Origin: Clostridia bacterium
GTDB lineage: Bacteria > Bacillota > Clostridia > Monoglobales > Firm-18
Assembly: GCA_045660545.1 (NCBI GenBank)
Contig: JAZREA010000021.1
Location: 2,511-66,510 of the forward strand
Reading direction: 5' to 3'
DNA: 64,000 nt
Numbering within the stretch: the first letter of the stretch is position 1; every line of letters starts with the position of its first letter. Made by a program: the position numbers and the translations under genes. Of this stretch, positions 5,385 to 60,986 are shown piece after piece. Below the pieces are notes generated by a model. It searched no databases, was not told the origin of the DNA, and worked only from the letters and a program-made list of their open reading frames with translations.

Positions 5385-6501
5385 TTTTCGTGCCACCCTC
5401 ACATTCTGTAACAATATCCAAAACCAGCTTGTTTACGTCGTATTCGTTTAAGAATCGCTCCAGGTTCGAAACATACAGGTCGTGGTTTTCGTCAATATCA
5501 TCTATCGCTTTTAATATGCAACCGACATTATCCGTATCAGCCAAAGCACCGGCACGCATCTTTCCGACAGTCGATGAAAGACCGGGTATATCACGTGCCA
5601 AAATGGGCACTCCCTTTTCGGCGTACTCGTATATTTTATTTGGCGCACAAAAAATATTATTAAGCGACGAGTCGTCGTAAGTAGCAATTCCCATATACGC
5701 CGTTTCGGTAACAAAAAGATGCTGCGGCGGATTAAGGTAGGGAATATGTACTGTATTTTCAAATTTGCTTTTTATATAAGGTATTGTATCGTGGCTTGGC
5801 GCCTTACCCAACAAAACCAAAAGATAGTCGTCTTTATTTTCCATCCTGCCCAGTGCGTCGGCAATTCTTGAAACGTCACGGTCTTTTCCTATCCAGCCCT
5901 GGTACAGAACAATCTTTTTGTTGGTTGCTTTTAGTTCGTCAACTATTTTTTGCGTATCAGGAGAAATTCCAACCTCTCCAAAGCGAGGTATGTTCGGTAT
6001 TACAACAGGGCATTTTGTAAGTCCTAACCACACCTTTAATATGTGCGCCCTGTTATATTCGGGCACTACAACGGCATTTGAGGCTTTTGCCACGTCCCTT
6101 ATGGATTTTAGAACTCCCGGACATTTGTCATAAAGTTCATAAATATTTAAAACCATAGGACTCTTGTCCTTTAAAATATCACGGCAGTACCTTGCTGTAT
6201 CCGCCGATCCAACCCAGATTAAATCATATTCGTTACTGTTTACGGCCTTTTTAACAACTTCACGAAAAAGCAGTATGTCTAAAAACTTATCGGCCTTGCC
6301 TACACCAATTTTGCACTTTTTATTTATCGTAACAAATTCCACATTAGGATATTTTAAAAAACTTCTTATGTATTCACTGGCGTTTGTCGTAACCACTTTA
6401 ACTTCATACCCATTTTCCAGCAACACCAAAACCTGCGACATACTGGGCGGCAGCGTTTCCAACTCCGGCCTTAATAAATATAGTATTTTTTTAATTTCCA
6501 T
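5377..6501 (-). CDS. glycosyltransferase (GT-B fold, GT4/GT1-like)
   Basis: 374 aa with a C-terminal donor-binding-type segment IYEYAEKGVPILARDIPGL. Overlaps its neighbours at both ends. Confidence 0.7.
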   Translation of the reverse strand: MEIKKILYLLRPELETLPPSMSQVLVLLENGYEVKVVTTNASEYIRSFLKYPNVEFVTINKKCKIGVGKADKFLDILLFREVVKKAVNSNEYDLIWVGSADTARYCRDILKDKSPMVLNIYELYDKCPGVLKSIRDVAKASNAVVVPEYNRAHILKVWLGLTKCPVVIPNIPRFGEVGISPDTQKIVDELKATNKKIVLYQGWIGKDRDVSRIADALGRMENKDDYLLVLLGKAPSHDTIPYIKSKFENTVHIPYLNPPQHLFVTETAYMGIATYDDSSLNNIFCAPNKIYEYAEKGVPILARDIPGLSSTVGKMRAGALADTDNVGCILKAIDDIDENHDLYVSNLERFLNEYDVNKLVLDIVTECEGGTKNE

Positions 6502-7666
6502 CGGATGACCCTCGCTTTATATATAACACTACAAGTGGTATTATACTGCAAATTGTGTAGTTGAATATTCCTGCGTTACCATACGACAAAATCAGCAACA
6601 CCATCATAAGCACAAACGCAAGCGGCTTGTTTTTAATTAATGATACAGACCTTTTTAAAAGAATCAGTATCGGAATCACAATAGCAAGTCCCATCAAAAT
6701 TCCGCCTCGTGCCAAAACAGCAACATACGCACAGTGGTTATCATAAGAGACGATAGAACCACCCTCGTTGGTGTACTTTATGTTACCCCAACCGGCCCCG
6801 AGGATTTTATTTTCTCTAAACAAATCAAGCCCAAGCTGCAGCTCGATATCTCTTCCCATGCTGACAAGACCGTTTTCAAACCTTTCCATCAGCGGTTCTA
6901 ATAAAAAGTCCGAAACGGGCAAAATCAAAAACACTAAAATCAAAATAAATGCCACGATAAAAGTGAAAATTGTCGCAAACGAGATTTTGCTCTTATTTAC
7001 GAACAGCTTATATATTTTATATAAAAAACTAAGGGCAAATAAAAACACAACCAGTATGCTTCGCGACCTGGACATACCAAAGACGATAATTAAAAACGAA
7101 GACAAAATGGACATAATCTTCATAACATTCCACTTTGTTTCATTTACGTTCAGTTTACCCTCATTAACAAAAAGGGCTATTGCTATACATATCGGCGCGA
7201 TGCTTCCGTCTATTATTACGGCTACACGGTTTACGCTGCCTCCCAGCAACCCGTAATACAACGAAAAAACGGCAGCCAGCACAGACGCCGCAAAGAACGA
7301 ATAGTAAAGCCTTTCTATTTTCACATCTTTGTCAGTAGTAAGGAAAAACGAAAACATAATTAAAGCCAAAACCATACCGATACTGGCTTCACTATCTGCA
7401 ACAGCAAGCTCAATACAAAGTACCGCCAAACCAAGTGGTGCGAAGAACAGTTTCTGTCTTGTTTTTATAATGCGCGGTATGTTCAAAGTGAATGACAGCA
7501 ACATAACAATTATCGCTATCGTTATAACGTTATACCCAAACACCGAAAAGCCATCCAGACATTTATATATCGGCGCAAGAAAAACAAACACACCAAGCAT
7601 AAACTGTTGTATGTCCGCAGTTGTTAAATTGTTGTTTTGTTTTTGGGTTTTTAAATAATTACTCAT
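6491..7666 (-). CDS. Wzy-type polymerase / O-antigen ligase-like membrane protein
   Basis: Roughly 390-aa, very hydrophobic multi-TM ORF. Start moved to ATG 7666 (MSNYLKTQ), overlapping the pyruvyl transferase stop. Locus context. Confidence 0.6.
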   Translation of the reverse strand: MSNYLKTQKQNNNLTTADIQQFMLGVFVFLAPIYKCLDGFSVFGYNVITIAIIVMLLSFTLNIPRIIKTRQKLFFAPLGLAVLCIELAVADSEASIGMVLALIMFSFFLTTDKDVKIERLYYSFFAASVLAAVFSLYYGLLGGSVNRVAVIIDGSIAPICIAIALFVNEGKLNVNETKWNVMKIMSILSSFLIIVFGMSRSRSILVVFLFALSFLYKIYKLFVNKSKISFATIFTFIVAFILILVFLILPVSDFLLEPLMERFENGLVSMGRDIELQLGLDLFRENKILGAGWGNIKYTNEGGSIVSYDNHCAYVAVLARGGILMGLAIVIPILILLKRSVSLIKNKPLAFVLMMVLLILSYGNAGIFNYTICSIIPLVVLYIKRGSSDGN

Positions 7667-13487: not shown

Positions 13488-13610
13488 TTTAAAAACCACG
13501 ATTTTTCCCATTAATTTCCTGATTAGGGCAGCACTTTATGTGGTGCCCTGACTGTAATTGCACAACATTTTGTGATTGTGAAAAAAATGTAATAAAATTG
13601 TAAAAAAGTA

Positions 13611-38054: not shown

Positions 38055-38222
38055 ATGATGAGCAAATCCAAAATGTCTTCGGCTTTAAAGACCGAAATCG
38101 CAAAAGAGCTTGGTGTATATGATATAGTGAAGAACGAAGGTTGGGGAGCTGTGTCCTCACGCGACTGCGGCAACATCGTAACAAAGGCAATCGAAATAGC
38201 GGAAAAGTCAGTACAGAAATAA
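38055..38222 (+). CDS. small acid-soluble spore protein, alpha/beta type
   Basis: Not in the ORF track (55 aa). Sequence: MMSKSKMSSALKTEIAKELGVYDIVKNEGWGAVSSRDCGNIVTKAIEIAEKSVQK. The two conserved SASP blocks (K.EIA.ELGV and SR..G..V...I) are present. AAAGGAG RBS. Confidence 0.8.
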   Translation: MMSKSKMSSALKTEIAKELGVYDIVKNEGWGAVSSRDCGNIVTKAIEIAEKSVQK

Positions 38223-38540
38223 CAAAAGGGTCATCTGTAAGGCCACCACCAGACAAGGAAGTAATGGTTTTGAAGCCTGATTTTCCGTTTATGCTTCGTA
38301 AAAAATTCCCGAAATACGCCAGTATTACGGAATTTTTATTACTTGCCTAATTCGAAAAATCAGATATTCAAAACTGCAAGGCATCCTAAAACCAAAATTT
38401 TTCGATGAAGTTCAAGGCGAAAGCAGCCCATAATCCTGACGGATATGGGCTGTTTTTAACGCTGAAATTCGCAAAAAAGATGGTTTTTAGGACAATACTT
38501 CCTTATCTGGCGGTGGCCAAAGATGACCCTTTATTTACAT
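38216..38540. repeat. inverted-repeat-bounded non-coding module A (MITE-like, inverton or structured RNA candidate)
   Basis: IR-L at 38225-38263 versus the reverse complement of IR-R at 38496-38532: 33 identical positions, 2 substitutions and one 2-nt indel. The interior of about 230 nt contains three further hairpins and no credible ORF. Confidence 0.6.
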
Positions 38541-56693: not shown

Positions 56694-56722
56694 TTGACAA
56701 AAATACCCTGATGTGGTATTAT
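56694..56722 (+). promoter_or_regulatory. sigma-A-type promoter for rplJL (TTGACA-17 nt-TGgTATTAT)
   Basis: TTGACA at 56694-56699. TATTAT at 56717-56722 with an upstream TG. Confidence 0.6.
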
Positions 56723-56724
56723 AA

Positions 56725-56830
56725 TAAAGGTTTCCATAGACTCAGGCACAAAAATAAGTCCTGCCGAGGAATATAAATCATTGATTTTTCAAGGTTCTTC
56801 GTATGTCTATGGACGAAGAACCTTTTTTAT
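56725..56830 (+). ncRNA. ribosomal protein L10 leader (attenuator) candidate
   Basis: Terminator hairpin AAGGTTCTTCGT...ACGAAGAACCTT plus T-run at 56791-56830. TCCATAGAC (56733-56741) is complementary to GTCTATGGA (56805-56813), which lies in the loop and 3' arm of that terminator hairpin, giving an antiterminator alternative. Confidence 0.6.
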
Positions 56831-56854
56831 ACTTACTTGAAAGGAGGAACAAAA

Positions 56855-58279: not shown

Positions 58280-60118
58280 ATGCAAAAGAAACACCAAAAA
58301 AAGCTATCAAGGATAATTATAGCTGTCGCCTTGTTTATATTATACAGCGTGTTTGAGGCAGAATCCTTTGGCGGATGGCTGATTTTCCTTGTTCCGTACC
58401 TGGTTGTCGGCTACGACATCTTGTTAAAGTCTGCCAAAAACATTAGACGCGGCCAGATTTTTGACGAAAACTTTCTTATGACAATAGCTACCATAGGCGC
58501 CTTTATAATAGGCGACTACCACGAGGCGCTGTTTGTAATGATTTTCTACCAGGTTGGCGACTTGTTTGAGTCGATAGCCGTTAATAACAGCAGAAAGTCG
58601 ATATCCGCACTTGTCGACCTCGCGCCCGAATACGCAAACGTTATGCGCGACGGCCAGATTACATCGGTTTCTCCCGAGGAAGTGGAAGTTGGCGAAACGA
58701 TTGTTATCCGTCCGGGAGAAAAAGTTCCTCTCGACGGCGTGGTAATCGAGGGCCAAAGCTCGCTTGACACCTCGGCACTTACCGGTGAGGCTATGCCCAT
58801 CGACATCCTGGTCGGCAGCACAGTTCAAAGCGGCTCTATTAACCTAAACGGCGTTGTACATGTTAAAACAACAGGCAGCTTTGAAAACTCTACTGCTTCA
58901 AAGATTATGGAGCTTGTCGAAAACTCCTCTATGAACAAAGCCGAGGCAGAAAGCTTTATTACCCGCTTTTCAAGGTACTACACACCTGTTGTCGTGGCAT
59001 TTGCCGCGCTTATGTCGGTAGTTCCTCCTCTGTTTGTCGGGAACTGGCAAATGTGGTTTAGCCGTGCGCTTATATTCCTCGTAGTATCGTGTCCGTGCGC
59101 GCTTGTAATTTCGATTCCTCTTTCGTTCTTCGGAGGTATCGGCGTGGCGTCTAAAAACGGTATTTTAGTCAAGGGCTCTAACTACTTAGAGCAGCTCGCA
59201 AAGGCAGACAAAGTGGTGTTTGACAAAACGGGGACCTTAACAAAGGGCAAGTTCAGCGTAAGCTGCGTGCACCCATATAACAACCTCGACAAAGACGAGG
59301 TGCTAAAATACACCGCCTTGGCAGAAAGCTATTCTTCCCACCCCATTTCCGAATCGCTGCGCGCCGCGTTTGATGTTGCCGGCCGCGATGACGTAATAAA
59401 AGATATTGAGGAAATCGGCGGTCGGGGTGTTAAGGCCGTAATCAACGGCAAGAGCATATGCGTAGGCAACGAAAGCCTGATGCAAAGCCTGGGGATTTCC
59501 TGCCCCGAATGCCCGCACTCGGGAACGGTTGTTCATCTTTCGATAGACGGACAATACGCGGGACATATAGAAATTACTGACGAAATAAAGCCCGACTCTT
59601 ACCCTGCTGTATCAGCAGTTAAAAAGCAGGGAATAAAAAAGGTTATAATGCTCACAGGAGACAACGAATCTGTGGCAAAGTCGGTTGCCGAAAAGCTTGG
59701 TATCACAGAATATTACTCAAAGCTTTTGCCGCTTGACAAGGTAACCCACATAGAGCGTATTATAAATGAATCGGAAGGCAAGACGATTTTCGTAGGTGAC
59801 GGAATTAACGACGCCCCCGTTTTAGCACGCGCCGATGTAGGTGTTGCGATGGGCGGACTCGGCTCTGACGCCGCGATTGAAGCGGCAGACGTTATCATTA
59901 TGGACGATAACCCCTTAAAACTCACACTTATGTTAAAAATTGCGAAAAAAACGCAAAAAATTGTGAAAGAAAATATAATTTTTGCGCTCGGAATTAAGCT
60001 TGCTGTGCTCTTACTTGGCGCATTTGGTTATACTAATATGTGGCTTGCGTCGTTTGCAGACGTAGGCGTTTCCGTAATAGCTATACTAAACTCTCTGCGA
60101 GCTCTTAATGTGCGATAA
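58280..60118 (+). CDS. heavy-metal-translocating P1B-type ATPase (Zn/Cd/Pb-type signature)
   Basis: 612 aa with CPCALVISIP (CPCx4SxP), DKTGTLT, GDGINDAP and a C-terminal ADVGVSVIAILNSLR. No fused N-terminal HMA domain. Confidence 0.88.
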   Translation: MQKKHQKKLSRIIIAVALFILYSVFEAESFGGWLIFLVPYLVVGYDILLKSAKNIRRGQIFDENFLMTIATIGAFIIGDYHEALFVMIFYQVGDLFESIAVNNSRKSISALVDLAPEYANVMRDGQITSVSPEEVEVGETIVIRPGEKVPLDGVVIEGQSSLDTSALTGEAMPIDILVGSTVQSGSINLNGVVHVKTTGSFENSTASKIMELVENSSMNKAEAESFITRFSRYYTPVVVAFAALMSVVPPLFVGNWQMWFSRALIFLVVSCPCALVISIPLSFFGGIGVASKNGILVKGSNYLEQLAKADKVVFDKTGTLTKGKFSVSCVHPYNNLDKDEVLKYTALAESYSSHPISESLRAAFDVAGRDDVIKDIEEIGGRGVKAVINGKSICVGNESLMQSLGISCPECPHSGTVVHLSIDGQYAGHIEITDEIKPDSYPAVSAVKKQGIKKVIMLTGDNESVAKSVAEKLGITEYYSKLLPLDKVTHIERIINESEGKTIFVGDGINDAPVLARADVGVAMGGLGSDAAIEAADVIIMDDNPLKLTLMLKIAKKTQKIVKENIIFALGIKLAVLLLGAFGYTNMWLASFADVGVSVIAILNSLRALNVR

Positions 60119-60120
60119 TA

Positions 60121-60157
60121 AAAAAAGTGATGTAATTTTTTACATCACTTTTTTTAT
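60121..60157. terminator. bidirectional intrinsic terminator
   Basis: A6-GTGATGTAA-TTTT-TTACATCAC-T7. Confidence 0.85.
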
Positions 60158-60410
60158 GGGCAGTCGAAAAATAGCGCAGATTGGACAAACTGAGCGAAAG
60201 CAAGGTTATTCCTTGCTTTCGGCTACCCGAAGGCGTACGGGGTACGTCGAGAGGCGAAATTTGTTCAAAACACAATGCAATAAGAAAGAAGAAATTCGAA
60301 AATCATCGAATTTCTTCCTGCAAATAATTATTTCATCTGTTTTTTACCAGCAAAGAGGCTTTATAATTCGTTATTTCGCATTGTGTGGTATGCGCATTTT
60401 GCTACTGCCC
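60158..60410. repeat. inverted-repeat-bounded non-coding module B (MITE-like or structured RNA candidate)
   Basis: Left arm GGGCAGTCGAAAAATAGCGCA (60158-60178) versus the reverse complement of the right arm, GGGCAGTAGCAAAATGCGCA (60391-60410). Weaker arm similarity extends to about 45 nt. The interior holds perfect hairpins at 60199-60225 and 60288-60317. Confidence 0.55.
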
Positions 60411-60416
60411 CTTTAT

Positions 60417-60986
60417 TTAAAATTCTTTTTCTATGCTTTGTCTTATCATATCAATAGTGTCTTTTGTGTTTTCCAGTTCGCCGGAGTCAATCATAAGAGT
60501 CGCTCCATATATAAGCGAGCGAATTATAAAGACTTTGTTTTGCTCCTCTTCCTTTGGGATGTTATATTTATCGCAACAAGCATAAATAAGCTCGTTTGTG
60601 GTGTCGGTAATTTGTGTCATAAGGCTTTTCTTCTCGTCGCCAAAGCCGTCTGTTTTAAGCATAAGCACCGTACGAAAATTCGGGTTCGCAATCCAGAACC
60701 TGACATACGCAACACAAGTTTCCACCAGCTTCTTTTTCACGTCATCTTCAAACACCAAAGCAACCTGGTTTTGCAGCATCAGCCATTGGTTGTGAATGTA
60801 AAGGACAATTTCTGCTATAAAGTCTTCCTTGTCCTTAAAGTGCTTATACGGAGCGGCGCAGGACACATTACACGCCGACGCAACACGCCTTAAAGAAAAG
60901 TCGCTGATGCCGTGTTCTTCAATCTCGGCGATCCCGGCTGTTATTAACTTTTGCTTTACTGTTTCGTTACCCTCAAAATAATCCAT
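60417..60986 (-). CDS. TetR/AcrR family transcriptional regulator
   Basis: Start moved to ATG 60986 (MDYFEGNETVKQKL), which has GAGGG upstream. HTH segment FSLRRVASACNVSCAAPYKHF. Confidence 0.85.
   Translation of the reverse strand: MDYFEGNETVKQKLITAGIAEIEEHGISDFSLRRVASACNVSCAAPYKHFKDKEDFIAEIVLYIHNQWLMLQNQVALVFEDDVKKKLVETCVAYVRFWIANPNFRTVLMLKTDGFGDEKKSLMTQITDTTNELIYACCDKYNIPKEEEQNKVFIIRSLIYGATLMIDSGELENTKDTIDMIRQSIEKEF

Follow-up and report, generated by a model that had tools for sequence, protein, structure and literature searches.

The locus

The window analysed here is a stretch of 64,000 nucleotides from a Clostridia bacterium (assembly GCA_045660545.1, contig JAZREA010000021.1, positions 2,511 to 66,510). 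Between a gene for a P-type cation ATPase and a convergent tetR gene it holds a strongly folded block of 254 nucleotides (60158-60411), one copy of a family of structured elements that keep a fixed orientation and position at the ends of genes, and the fold of which has been selected on a single strand. The explanation that we favour, giving to it about half of our credence, is that the block is a copy of a family of non-autonomous, dispersed elements which depend on their structure and are probably mobile.

The two genes frame the block tightly. The upstream one (58280-60118, plus strand), taken from the list of open reading frames, codes for a P-type (E1-E2) cation ATPase (Pfam E1-E2_ATPase, 1e-46; Hydrolase, 3e-28) and ends with a TAA codon at 60116-60118. 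The downstream one (60417-60986, minus strand) codes for a TetR-family regulator, as judged from its translation, its Pfam TetR_N domain and its homologues, and its stop codon (60417-60419) lies 5 nucleotides from the 3' end of the block. A search for the exact record of this TetR with four alternative starts found none; a cluster mate at 90% identity carries the label of a "Ruminococcus sp." metagenome-assembled genome (MAG). From one stop codon to the other the spacer measures 298 bases and leaves no free sequence: it is filled, in order, by an 18-bp palindrome (60118-60157), by the 254-nucleotide block and by five nucleotides, TTTAT. The latter, with the reverse-complemented stop codon of tetR (TTA), make a flank at 60412-60419 that is outside the element, since homology among the copies of the family stops at ...CCCC. 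This flank is kept in a sister species (L054; L numbers designate the sequences compared with the window).

The palindrome, which we name T, is a perfect inverted repeat (arms 60118-60135 and 60140-60157, 100% complementary) that begins on the final base of the ATPase stop codon, with an A-run on its left and a T-run on its right. By its composition it is a hairpin resembling a bidirectional intrinsic terminator, directly 5' of the element, where an earlier note on this DNA had placed one. Homologues of T precede 12 other copies of the family, and L022 has the same GTGATGTAA...TTACATCAC stem.

Anatomy of the window copy

The covariance model of the family, R1, matches 60156-60411 on the plus strand with 147.8 bits (E 3e-38). 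The window thus holds a full-length copy of the long form, 78-82% identical to L004, L016 and L029. Its fold comprises five helices, P1 to P5. The closing stem, P1, joins the two ends of the element, which had correctly been seen as an inverted repeat at 60158-60178 and 60391-60410: its 5' strand, the left arm GGGCAGTCGAAAAATAGCGCA (60158-60178), pairs with 60391-60411, with internal mismatches and a bulged A, and its 3' strand, the right arm TGCGCATTTTGCTACTGCCC (60391-60410), forms the 3' end of the element, extending to 60411. This 3' arm is the better conserved of the two, and its segment GCGCATTTTGCTACTGCCCC is identical in L004, L005 and L054.

Inside P1 lies a conserved 5' core (60181-60268), delineated by invariant alignment columns, by RNAalifold and by pair counts, in which P2, P3 and P4 meet in a three-way junction. 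P2 pairs 60181-60194 with 60255-60268; what had been taken for a weaker inward continuation of the arms belongs here, as ACAAAC lies in P2 and its partner GTTTGT stands at 60260-60268. P3 (60195-60205 / 60211-60221) is the 11-bp hairpin CGAAAGCAAGG/CCTTGCTTTCG of the earlier note, which exists at 60195-60221 and not at 60199-60225. P4 consists of a short P4a (60226-60228 / 60251-60254) and of P4b, where a CGTAC/GTACG helix had been noticed; the full helix is GGCGTAC at 60232-60238 with GTACGTC at 60242-60248. For these two hairpins the coordinates of the note were out by 2-4 nucleotides.

The remainder is P5 (60270-60386). Its base helix, ACACAATGCA with CGCATTGTGT (60270-60279 / 60377-60386), includes the 9-bp pair already described at 60270-60278 and 60378-60386, and all ten of its pairs have compensatory changes in the family. 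It encloses a variable insert (60280-60376), not present in the short forms L021 and L025, which in the window contains a further hairpin, P5a (60286-60319, stem of 12-14 bp, GAAGAAATTCGA/TCGAATTTCTTC); the perfect 12-bp hairpin reported at 60288-60317 is its centre. Picked up by a scan for terminators on the minus strand, P5a looks terminator-like on that strand, where it would stop tetR transcripts. Most long forms hold a homologous AGAAAUUCG.../GAAAAAUC... hairpin, followed by a minus-strand U-tract in 8 of about 17 of them, the window copy included. The same insert carries a perfect TATAAT hexamer (60362-60367, plus strand) directed toward tetR, and several other copies (L015, L031, L029, L034) have hexamers resembling a -10 box at the corresponding position; this could be an outward promoter giving antisense RNA, or mere AT-richness.

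A family not previously catalogued

A degenerate pattern made from the arms, run over one genome per species, gave 9 matches, which is about what chance would yield, and two of these nine align across the whole block: L004, from a Congzhengia sp. MAG (78% over 260 nucleotides), and L005, from a Clostridia MAG. A pattern of three blocks of the core (AAACTGAGC..TACCCGA..GAGNGGCGAA) found 25 metagenome contigs, and related patterns recovered three contigs from one phage. R1 gives 85-163 bits to the 25 metagenome loci and the phage contigs, a range within which the window copy falls. Looser patterns produced chance matches within coding sequence only, and the pursuit of further phage copies with a looser pattern, a capsid-codon pattern and a search with the capsid protein led back to the same phage and to relatives of it that are free of the element. 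Because the members of the family were all found with the strict core pattern, its diversity is underestimated.

Nothing in the catalogues that were searched corresponds to these elements. Seven members compared with Rfam 15 at permissive thresholds matched no family, whether group II intron, 6S, Y RNA/YrlA, raiA, small ribozyme or riboswitch: across 60050-60500 nothing relevant came up at E<=10, and the six other members gave nothing at E<=0.1. ARAGORN predicts no tRNA or tmRNA gene in 59900-60600. Comparison by blastn with cultured phages (INPHARED) and plasmids (PLSDB) gave no match, and nothing relevant was met in the literature queried by sequence words, or in the supplements of a survey of structured RNAs of the human microbiome (first 200 of 408 files). 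We are therefore led to regard these strongly folded elements, of about 165-265 bases, as a family absent from Rfam 15 and apparently uncatalogued until now; it occurs in gut and rumen Clostridia (Oscillospiraceae/Ruminococcus-like) and in at least one of their phages.

A fold selected on one strand

The window block by itself folds far better than expected. On the plus strand it reaches -88.0 kcal/mol, to be compared with -59.7 +/- 4.3 for dinucleotide shuffles (z -6.5), on the minus strand z is -7.5, and on either strand none of 200 shuffles folded as well. From an alignment of 21 distinct full-length copies, with a mean column identity of 64%, RNAalifold derives the five helices. In P1 the two ends, GGGGAUAGGAAAAA..CAGA and UCUG..UUUUU..AUCCCC, pair with internal mismatches and vary in concert from copy to copy (GGGGAU/AUCCCC, GGUGAU/AUCACC and GAAUGG/CCGUUC are examples). 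P2 joins yGGACAAAC to GUUUGUUCr, P3 is a hairpin the sequence of which is wholly different from one copy to the next, P4 associates CCC / G.GG with GGCGUAC / GUACGCC, and P5 is a hairpin accommodating an insert of about 10 to 120 nucleotides, with short forms of 167 (L021) and 173 nucleotides (L025) and long forms of 205-265.

Of the 55 pairs of the consensus, 32 are changed on both sides, as against 18.5 in shuffles. Paired cells amount to 95.8% versus 81.3% in shuffles, a value reached by none of 500, and the covariation score is 0.432, versus 0.156 in shuffles and at most 0.087 when the partners are slid by one to three columns. Every one of the 21 aligned copies keeps 87-100% of the pairs. 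Around the junction of P2, P3 and P4, moreover, some 20 unpaired bases are invariant (CUGAG, UACCCGA, GAG.GGCGAA).

Pairing of this kind can be read on either strand of DNA, and it is the wobble pairs that point to one of them. In the plus orientation the alignment contains 70 G-U cells versus 18 A-C cells, and one G-U pair of P2 is retained in 17 of the 21 copies. Folding energies agree: the consensus has -54.5 kcal/mol on the plus strand versus -39.7 on its reverse complement, and single sequences are more stable on the plus strand in 20 cases of 21 (means -90.8 versus -78.4), the lone exception being the window copy itself. As both the excess of G-U and the energies favour it, the plus strand is the structured strand, and the selected fold is thus antisense to tetR. 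The minus-strand transcript expected by the earlier note, reaching the T hairpin from about 60280, is accordingly not favoured, the structured strand being the plus strand throughout the family.

For the same reason we did not retain as the main reading a minus-strand attenuator, in which a ribosome at the tetR stop codon would mask the 3' arm and the freed 5' arm would compete with T: it is the pairing of the plus strand that is selected, and T of the window is not complementary to the arms of its own element. It was the 0-10-nucleotide spacing from the stop codon that had made this idea attractive.

Placement of the copies

The genes next to the copies are unrelated and mostly of housekeeping nature: pyruvate kinase, LysRS, DegV, agmatine deiminase, glycosyltransferases, ribosomal proteins, SecG, CysK and DprA, together with two major capsid genes of phages. 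Among the neighbours of 25 loci no transposase, integrase, recombinase or reverse transcriptase adjoins any copy. What these places have in common is the relation to the downstream gene. For 17 copies out of 22, no more than 10 nucleotides separate the 3' end from the stop codon of an oppositely oriented gene, and in L028 that stop codon falls within the 3' arm.

Two situations are found upstream. In one of them, that of 12 loci including the window, a co-directional gene ends and is followed by a hairpin with a T-run, our T, 0-15 nucleotides ahead of the element; in the other a gene of the opposite strand starts about 43 nucleotides away, so that the element sits inside a pair of co-directional genes. 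At 6 loci of the 18 considered, the genes on both sides run opposite to the structured strand. A T-run follows the closing stem in about half of the copies. The T hairpins are themselves similar to P1: TTTTGCTACAGCCTCT is common to the 3' half of T and to the 3' arm of the element in L016, as is ACATCACCTTTT in L022. A gene-specific regulator or riboswitch was considered and set aside, since the copies have no neighbouring gene family in common and lie downstream of, and antisense to, the gene that they abut.

The flanks of 23 copies hold no shared target-site duplication. The TTTAT that stands on both sides of the window copy does not extend to the family as such a duplication, and its left copy belongs to the T-run of the T hairpin. 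GC skew, examined for the orientation of the loci with respect to replication, was uninformative on pieces of 1-11 kb.

A different type of hairpin, short, rich in GC and ending with CCCCTAC, turns up repeatedly close to copies or to empty sites, in phages and unrelated contigs: L048/L047 3716-3745, L020 (minus strand) about 3090-3060, and L012 6240-6272 and 4755-4775. An example is GGGCGACC-GCATA-GGGTCGCCCCTAC. These hairpins resemble the repetitive extragenic palindromic (REP) elements that are tagged by GTAG/CTAC.

Indications of dispersal, gain and loss

The idea put forward in the earlier note, that the block belongs to a family of small structured elements residing at gene 3' ends and behaving as mobile or dispersed DNA, finds support. 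Homology between copies has sharp borders, multiple and partial copies occur, and related genomes differ by presence or absence of the element. Near-identical elements are found between unrelated flanks (L005/L039, 95%; L018/L031, 89%; L015/L028, 85-87%), and in such pairs homology begins and ends exactly at the element ends. T lies inside the repeated unit in L005/L039 and L018/L031, and in L015/L028 homology begins precisely at GGGGATAGG.

Two contigs carry two copies each, 1.8 kb apart in L020 and within 10.5 kb in L017. Incomplete forms also occur: L027 has a partial copy devoid of P2-P4 directly upstream of its full copy, L030 and L025 have solo 3' arms upstream, L032 has a duplicated 3' part at the start of its contig, and L017 repeats 22 nucleotides of its own 3' end just ahead of the 5' arm. 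Mini copies reduced to the arms lie beside other stop codons (L012, about 6270-6312; L032, about 6650-6712). L026 is a recombinant: its left flank and 5' core are those of the L019 group, its 3' arm comes from another copy, and its right flank is different. Where two copies probably derive from one genome, they are only about 85% identical (L030/L032, with the same coverage; L016/L029, from the same sample).

Phages provide a view of presence and absence. The capsid genes of L012 and L015, 42% identical, are each followed by a copy. L047 and L048, phages with capsids 85% identical to that of L012, have no element: the capsid stop codon is followed by 16 nucleotides, a REP-like hairpin and the ribosome-binding site of the next gene. 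In L012, between the hairpin of the element and the next phage gene (4690-4745, corresponding to 3960-4010 of L046), there is also an array of about six tandem heptamers, GCAAAGT / GCAAAAT, which is not present in the element-free L047 and L048.

The locus of the window itself can be followed in its relatives. In the sister species L054 the ATPase and tetR are again neighbours, with nucleotide identities of 91.2% and 88.6%, and between them one finds another hairpin (GAGGCTGTATCAAAATGA...ATTTTGATACAGCC), then only the last 35 or so nucleotides of the element, with the TTTATTTA flank unchanged after them. The two species are identical there over about 78 bases (window 60378-60455, L054 1427-1504), from the 3' arm across the spacer and into the last codons of tetR; set against the 88.6-91.2% of the surrounding genes, this points to constraint or to a recent exchange. 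In more distant tetR orthologues a plain bidirectional terminator stands against the stop codon. At the site downstream of tetR that is orthologous to that of the window element, a relative with 75% TetR identity, L056 (2095-2175) and L057 (715-795), displays P1-like arms, GGCTGTGAAAAAGTC ... GACTTTTTCGCAGCC, enclosing an unrelated interior of 55 nucleotides and followed by AGTTTATTTA. In L055 (1421-1590) unrelated sequence takes the place of the last 45 or so nucleotides of the tetR orthologue and extends the open reading frame to 231 amino acids, which would reflect either a rearrangement at the end of the gene or an assembly chimera.

What the element may be

We may now try to understand how such a family came to be where it is. 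The element would be defined by the fold of one strand, in which P1 closes the conserved P2-P4 junction and a P5 tolerant of inserts. Its copies would land in one orientation, within a few bases after the stop codon of a gene, the structured strand being antisense to that gene. They would be tolerated there, between stop codon and terminator, because terminator hairpins are carried along or adjoin the copy, with T on the 5' side and P5a in the insert presumably acting as such. P1 may then represent the ends recognized by a mobilizing machinery, and the invariant junction a binding or catalytic part; propagation would proceed via a folded single strand, RNA or single-stranded DNA, through an enzyme acting in trans. 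That T and the partial copies lying upstream look like the 3' arm suggests either that insertion takes place beside sequences with which the 5' arm can pair, or that derivatives reduced to their arms survive as terminators.

As to the nature of the active strand, RNA would be favoured by the GA-rich junction and by the G-U pair retained in P2, and single-stranded DNA by the lack of any promoter common to the copies, by the terminators on the flanks, by the derivatives reduced to their arms and by the REP-like hairpins of the same contigs. A bolder version, which we consider rather unlikely, would see here a mobile structured nucleic acid of a new class, with the invariant junction as a catalytic or guide-like core directing insertion between stop codon and terminator, and with the 5' arm recognizing targets that resemble the 3' arm; such targeting would account for the P1-like hairpins and for the tandem partial copies upstream.

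Mobility is read from distribution only, as no mobilizing gene (transposase, reverse transcriptase or recombinase) adjoins any copy, and this weighs against the explanation that we favour. So do the inconsistency of target-site duplication among copies and the divergence of copies that probably share a genome, which a recent burst would not have left. The retention of the pairs in nearly every copy would fit selection on each copy equally well. There is, finally, no conserved promoter before the element, and a terminator is often found there, which leaves a plus-strand RNA without an evident origin.

Several of these points would be natural if the host kept the element as a device acting in cis at gene ends. 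The plus-strand RNA, T and P5a would then form at each locus a composite terminator or insulator that blocks antisense read-through into the convergent gene and terminates or stabilizes the convergent mRNA, after an ancient spread of copies that are now selected. The retention of 87-100% of the pairs in 21 of 21 aligned copies at 64% mean identity would follow, as would the identity of about 85% within a sample, the location of the copies, always at gene ends and mostly within 10 nucleotides of a stop codon (17 of 22), the terminator-like hairpins on both sides, the T-run that follows the closing stem in about half of the copies, and the 78 nucleotides shared with L054 over the 3' arm and tetR end between flanks at 89-91%. 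A terminator or insulator, however, needs neither some 20 invariant junction bases nor a G-U pair kept by the family. L054, the sister species, and the related phages do without the core, the 6 loci of 18 where both neighbours are on the opposite strand have nothing transcribing into the plus strand, and arms-only mini copies are hard to accommodate, so that we hold this device in cis to be unlikely, while leaving to it a substantial minority of our credence. The invariant junction and the strong covariation would suit a structured RNA acting in trans, the product of a multi-copy gene with a cellular role as the RNA of a ribonucleoprotein or as a ribozyme. The ends of such a molecule would be shielded by the closing stem, in the manner of 6S, Y or retron-type RNAs, with a protein or a ligand bound at the three-way junction. 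The architecture of the family, where the closing stem encloses a conserved 5' domain and a long variable hairpin, fits this, and absence from Rfam could mean that the class is new. Yet homology between copies begins at the first paired base, leaving no conserved promoter, a terminator is often directly upstream, truncated, mini and tandem copies exist, the core is lost in L054, and no conserved partner gene is nearby, the lack of a reverse transcriptase excluding a canonical retron. We find such an RNA improbable.

Another possibility is a sub-variant of our preferred explanation, with the nucleic acid fixed as DNA. The element would be a folded single-stranded DNA substrate, comparable to REP doublets forming hairpins (REPINs) and their REP-associated tyrosine transposases (RAYTs), to IS200/IS605-type elements or to integron attC sites, where an HUH or tyrosine enzyme would recognize the imperfect P1, its mismatches giving strand specificity. 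The element has no promoter and is shielded from transcription on both sides; the lack of target duplication, the persistence of arms-only derivatives (T hairpins, mini copies), the REP-like hairpins ending with CCCCTAC in the same contigs and phages, and a structured strand antisense to the abutting open reading frame, as in the bottom strands of attC, all agree with this. Against it stand the G-U pair kept in 17 of 21 copies and the GA-rich junction, which are more typical of RNA, and there is no known single-stranded DNA element with a conserved multi-helix junction of about 100 nucleotides. Furthermore, no RAYT, Y1 transposase or integrase is seen near any copy, the R''/R' boxes of attC are not present, and the neighbours are housekeeping genes rather than cassettes; restricted to DNA in this way, the proposal receives a fairly small share of our confidence. 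Chance alone could also have brought hairpins and terminators together in an AT-rich spacer, and in favour of this one could invoke that the short motifs common with another folded module of the window (38221-38540, discussed below) are at chance level; the folding z scores of -6.5 and -7.5 and the 30 homologous loci with covariation practically exclude it. The identification of what moves the element or binds it could uncover a new mechanism of mobilization or a new partnership between RNA and protein.

Comparison with known systems

The closest working likeness appears to be with bcr1, ERIC and BOX, with the reservation that bcr1 was compared by its description and that the core of the present element is far more conserved. 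Size variants of ERIC arise from insertion at a fixed internal site, and size varies likewise here. As in bcr1 of Bacillus cereus, ERIC, BOX, RUP and SPRITE, we have a small (100-300 bp), non-coding, dispersed, intergenic sequence often lying at gene 3' ends, with imperfect terminal inverted repeats as in the bcr1/ERIC/BOX class. Bcr1, of about 155 bp, is transcribed and displays compensatory changes and a non-conserved genomic distribution (PMC3184786), so that in both cases an RNA fold is maintained by compensatory changes. Unlike bcr1, which has 5-bp direct repeats, our element has no consistent ones, and unlike the whole class it possesses a three-way-junction core with some 20 invariant unpaired bases, a fixed orientation and spacing to a stop codon, and an optional P1-like terminator hairpin. 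Compared with miniature inverted-repeat transposable elements (MITEs), it has imperfect terminal inverted repeats of 21 nucleotides and lacks a target-site duplication of fixed length; no parent insertion sequence was found among the neighbours of the 25 loci.

Group IIC introns have a conserved RNA structure and make no target duplication. They are described as lying directly downstream of an intrinsic-terminator motif, in the orientation of the terminator (PMC1702495), with an IIC-attC lineage that inserts at attC sites (PMC3001079). The element similarly stands, in 12 loci, just 3' of a terminator hairpin with its T-run and in the same orientation. It differs by its size (165-265 nucleotides versus more than 400 to 2000), by its ends, which pair mutually, and by its five-helix fold; it has no domain V/VI, no GUGYG...AY ends and no reverse transcriptase, and no Intron_gpII match was obtained at E<=10.

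REPs and REPINs are also non-autonomous hairpin repeats placed at gene ends without target duplication; their copies within a genome are diverged and long-lived, and their hairpins double as terminators, as those of our element may. Hairpins with the GTAG/CTAC tag of REPs (PMC3733652) occur, as noted, in the same contigs. A REPIN is made of two short REPs and a short spacer, whereas here the corresponding "spacer" is a conserved, covarying structure of 130-230 nucleotides, and no RAYT gene was found in the fetched flanks.

The msr-msd RNA of retrons combines pairing of its ends (a1/a2), a structured 5' part and a long variable 3' hairpin. The layout of our element is alike, except that no reverse transcriptase adjoins it (the window neighbours are the ATPase and TetR), that it is dispersed in many copies, and that it matches no Rfam retron. 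Integron attC sites were discarded on account of ends of the form GGGG.../...CCCC without AAC/GTT boxes, and of neighbours such as pyruvate kinase, LysRS and ribosomal proteins. The element is neither a group IIC intron nor a retron RNA and is probably not a bcr1-type repeat or a REPIN, and we file it with the interspersed structured repeats.

It joins features that are usually separate: a dispersal in the manner of MITEs or REPs, a multi-helix core like that of functional RNAs, and a placement beside stop codons and terminators similar to that of group IIC introns. For gut and rumen Clostridia, where few non-coding elements have been characterized so far, the family would add a well-supported structured element, with 32 covarying pairs and no counterpart in Rfam. 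It also marks sites of rearrangement, as witnessed by the L026 recombinant and by contigs that break at copies, and R1 can be used for its annotation.

Other folded features of the window

The earlier note had associated the block with a second module, module A (38221-38540), as diverged members of one family, and this association did not hold. R1 finds 60156-60411 alone across the 64 kb, with its filters on or off, and has no match on module A; the best local alignment of the two modules is equalled or bettered by 120 of 500 dinucleotide shuffles, the short motifs that they share are at chance level, and module A has no similarity to any fetched member of the family. The 11-mer CCCTTTATTTA, which had been seen as a common right end, does occur at both 38527 and 60409. 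The block has, however, 11-12-mers in common with at least 14 other sites of the window, and 8 of the 11 bases at 60409 are flank, including the tetR stop codon, which the family does not conserve. Nor does the palindrome at 13525-13549 appear to be a solo end of the element, as had been proposed: it has only GGGCAG in common with it, lacks the A/T-run part of the arm and is not matched by the model. No further copy of the 3' arm was met in the window with up to 3 mismatches allowed.

Module A is a separate block. It folds very strongly (-133 kcal/mol for 317 nucleotides), is bounded by an inverted repeat of 39 nucleotides at 87%, and lies between the end of a small open reading frame and a convergent recG; it may represent a further family of the same general kind.

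The sole match of the window with Rfam at gathering level is an ordinary leader of ribosomal protein L10 (RF00557, 48 bits), at 56716-56837, upstream of rplJ-rplL.

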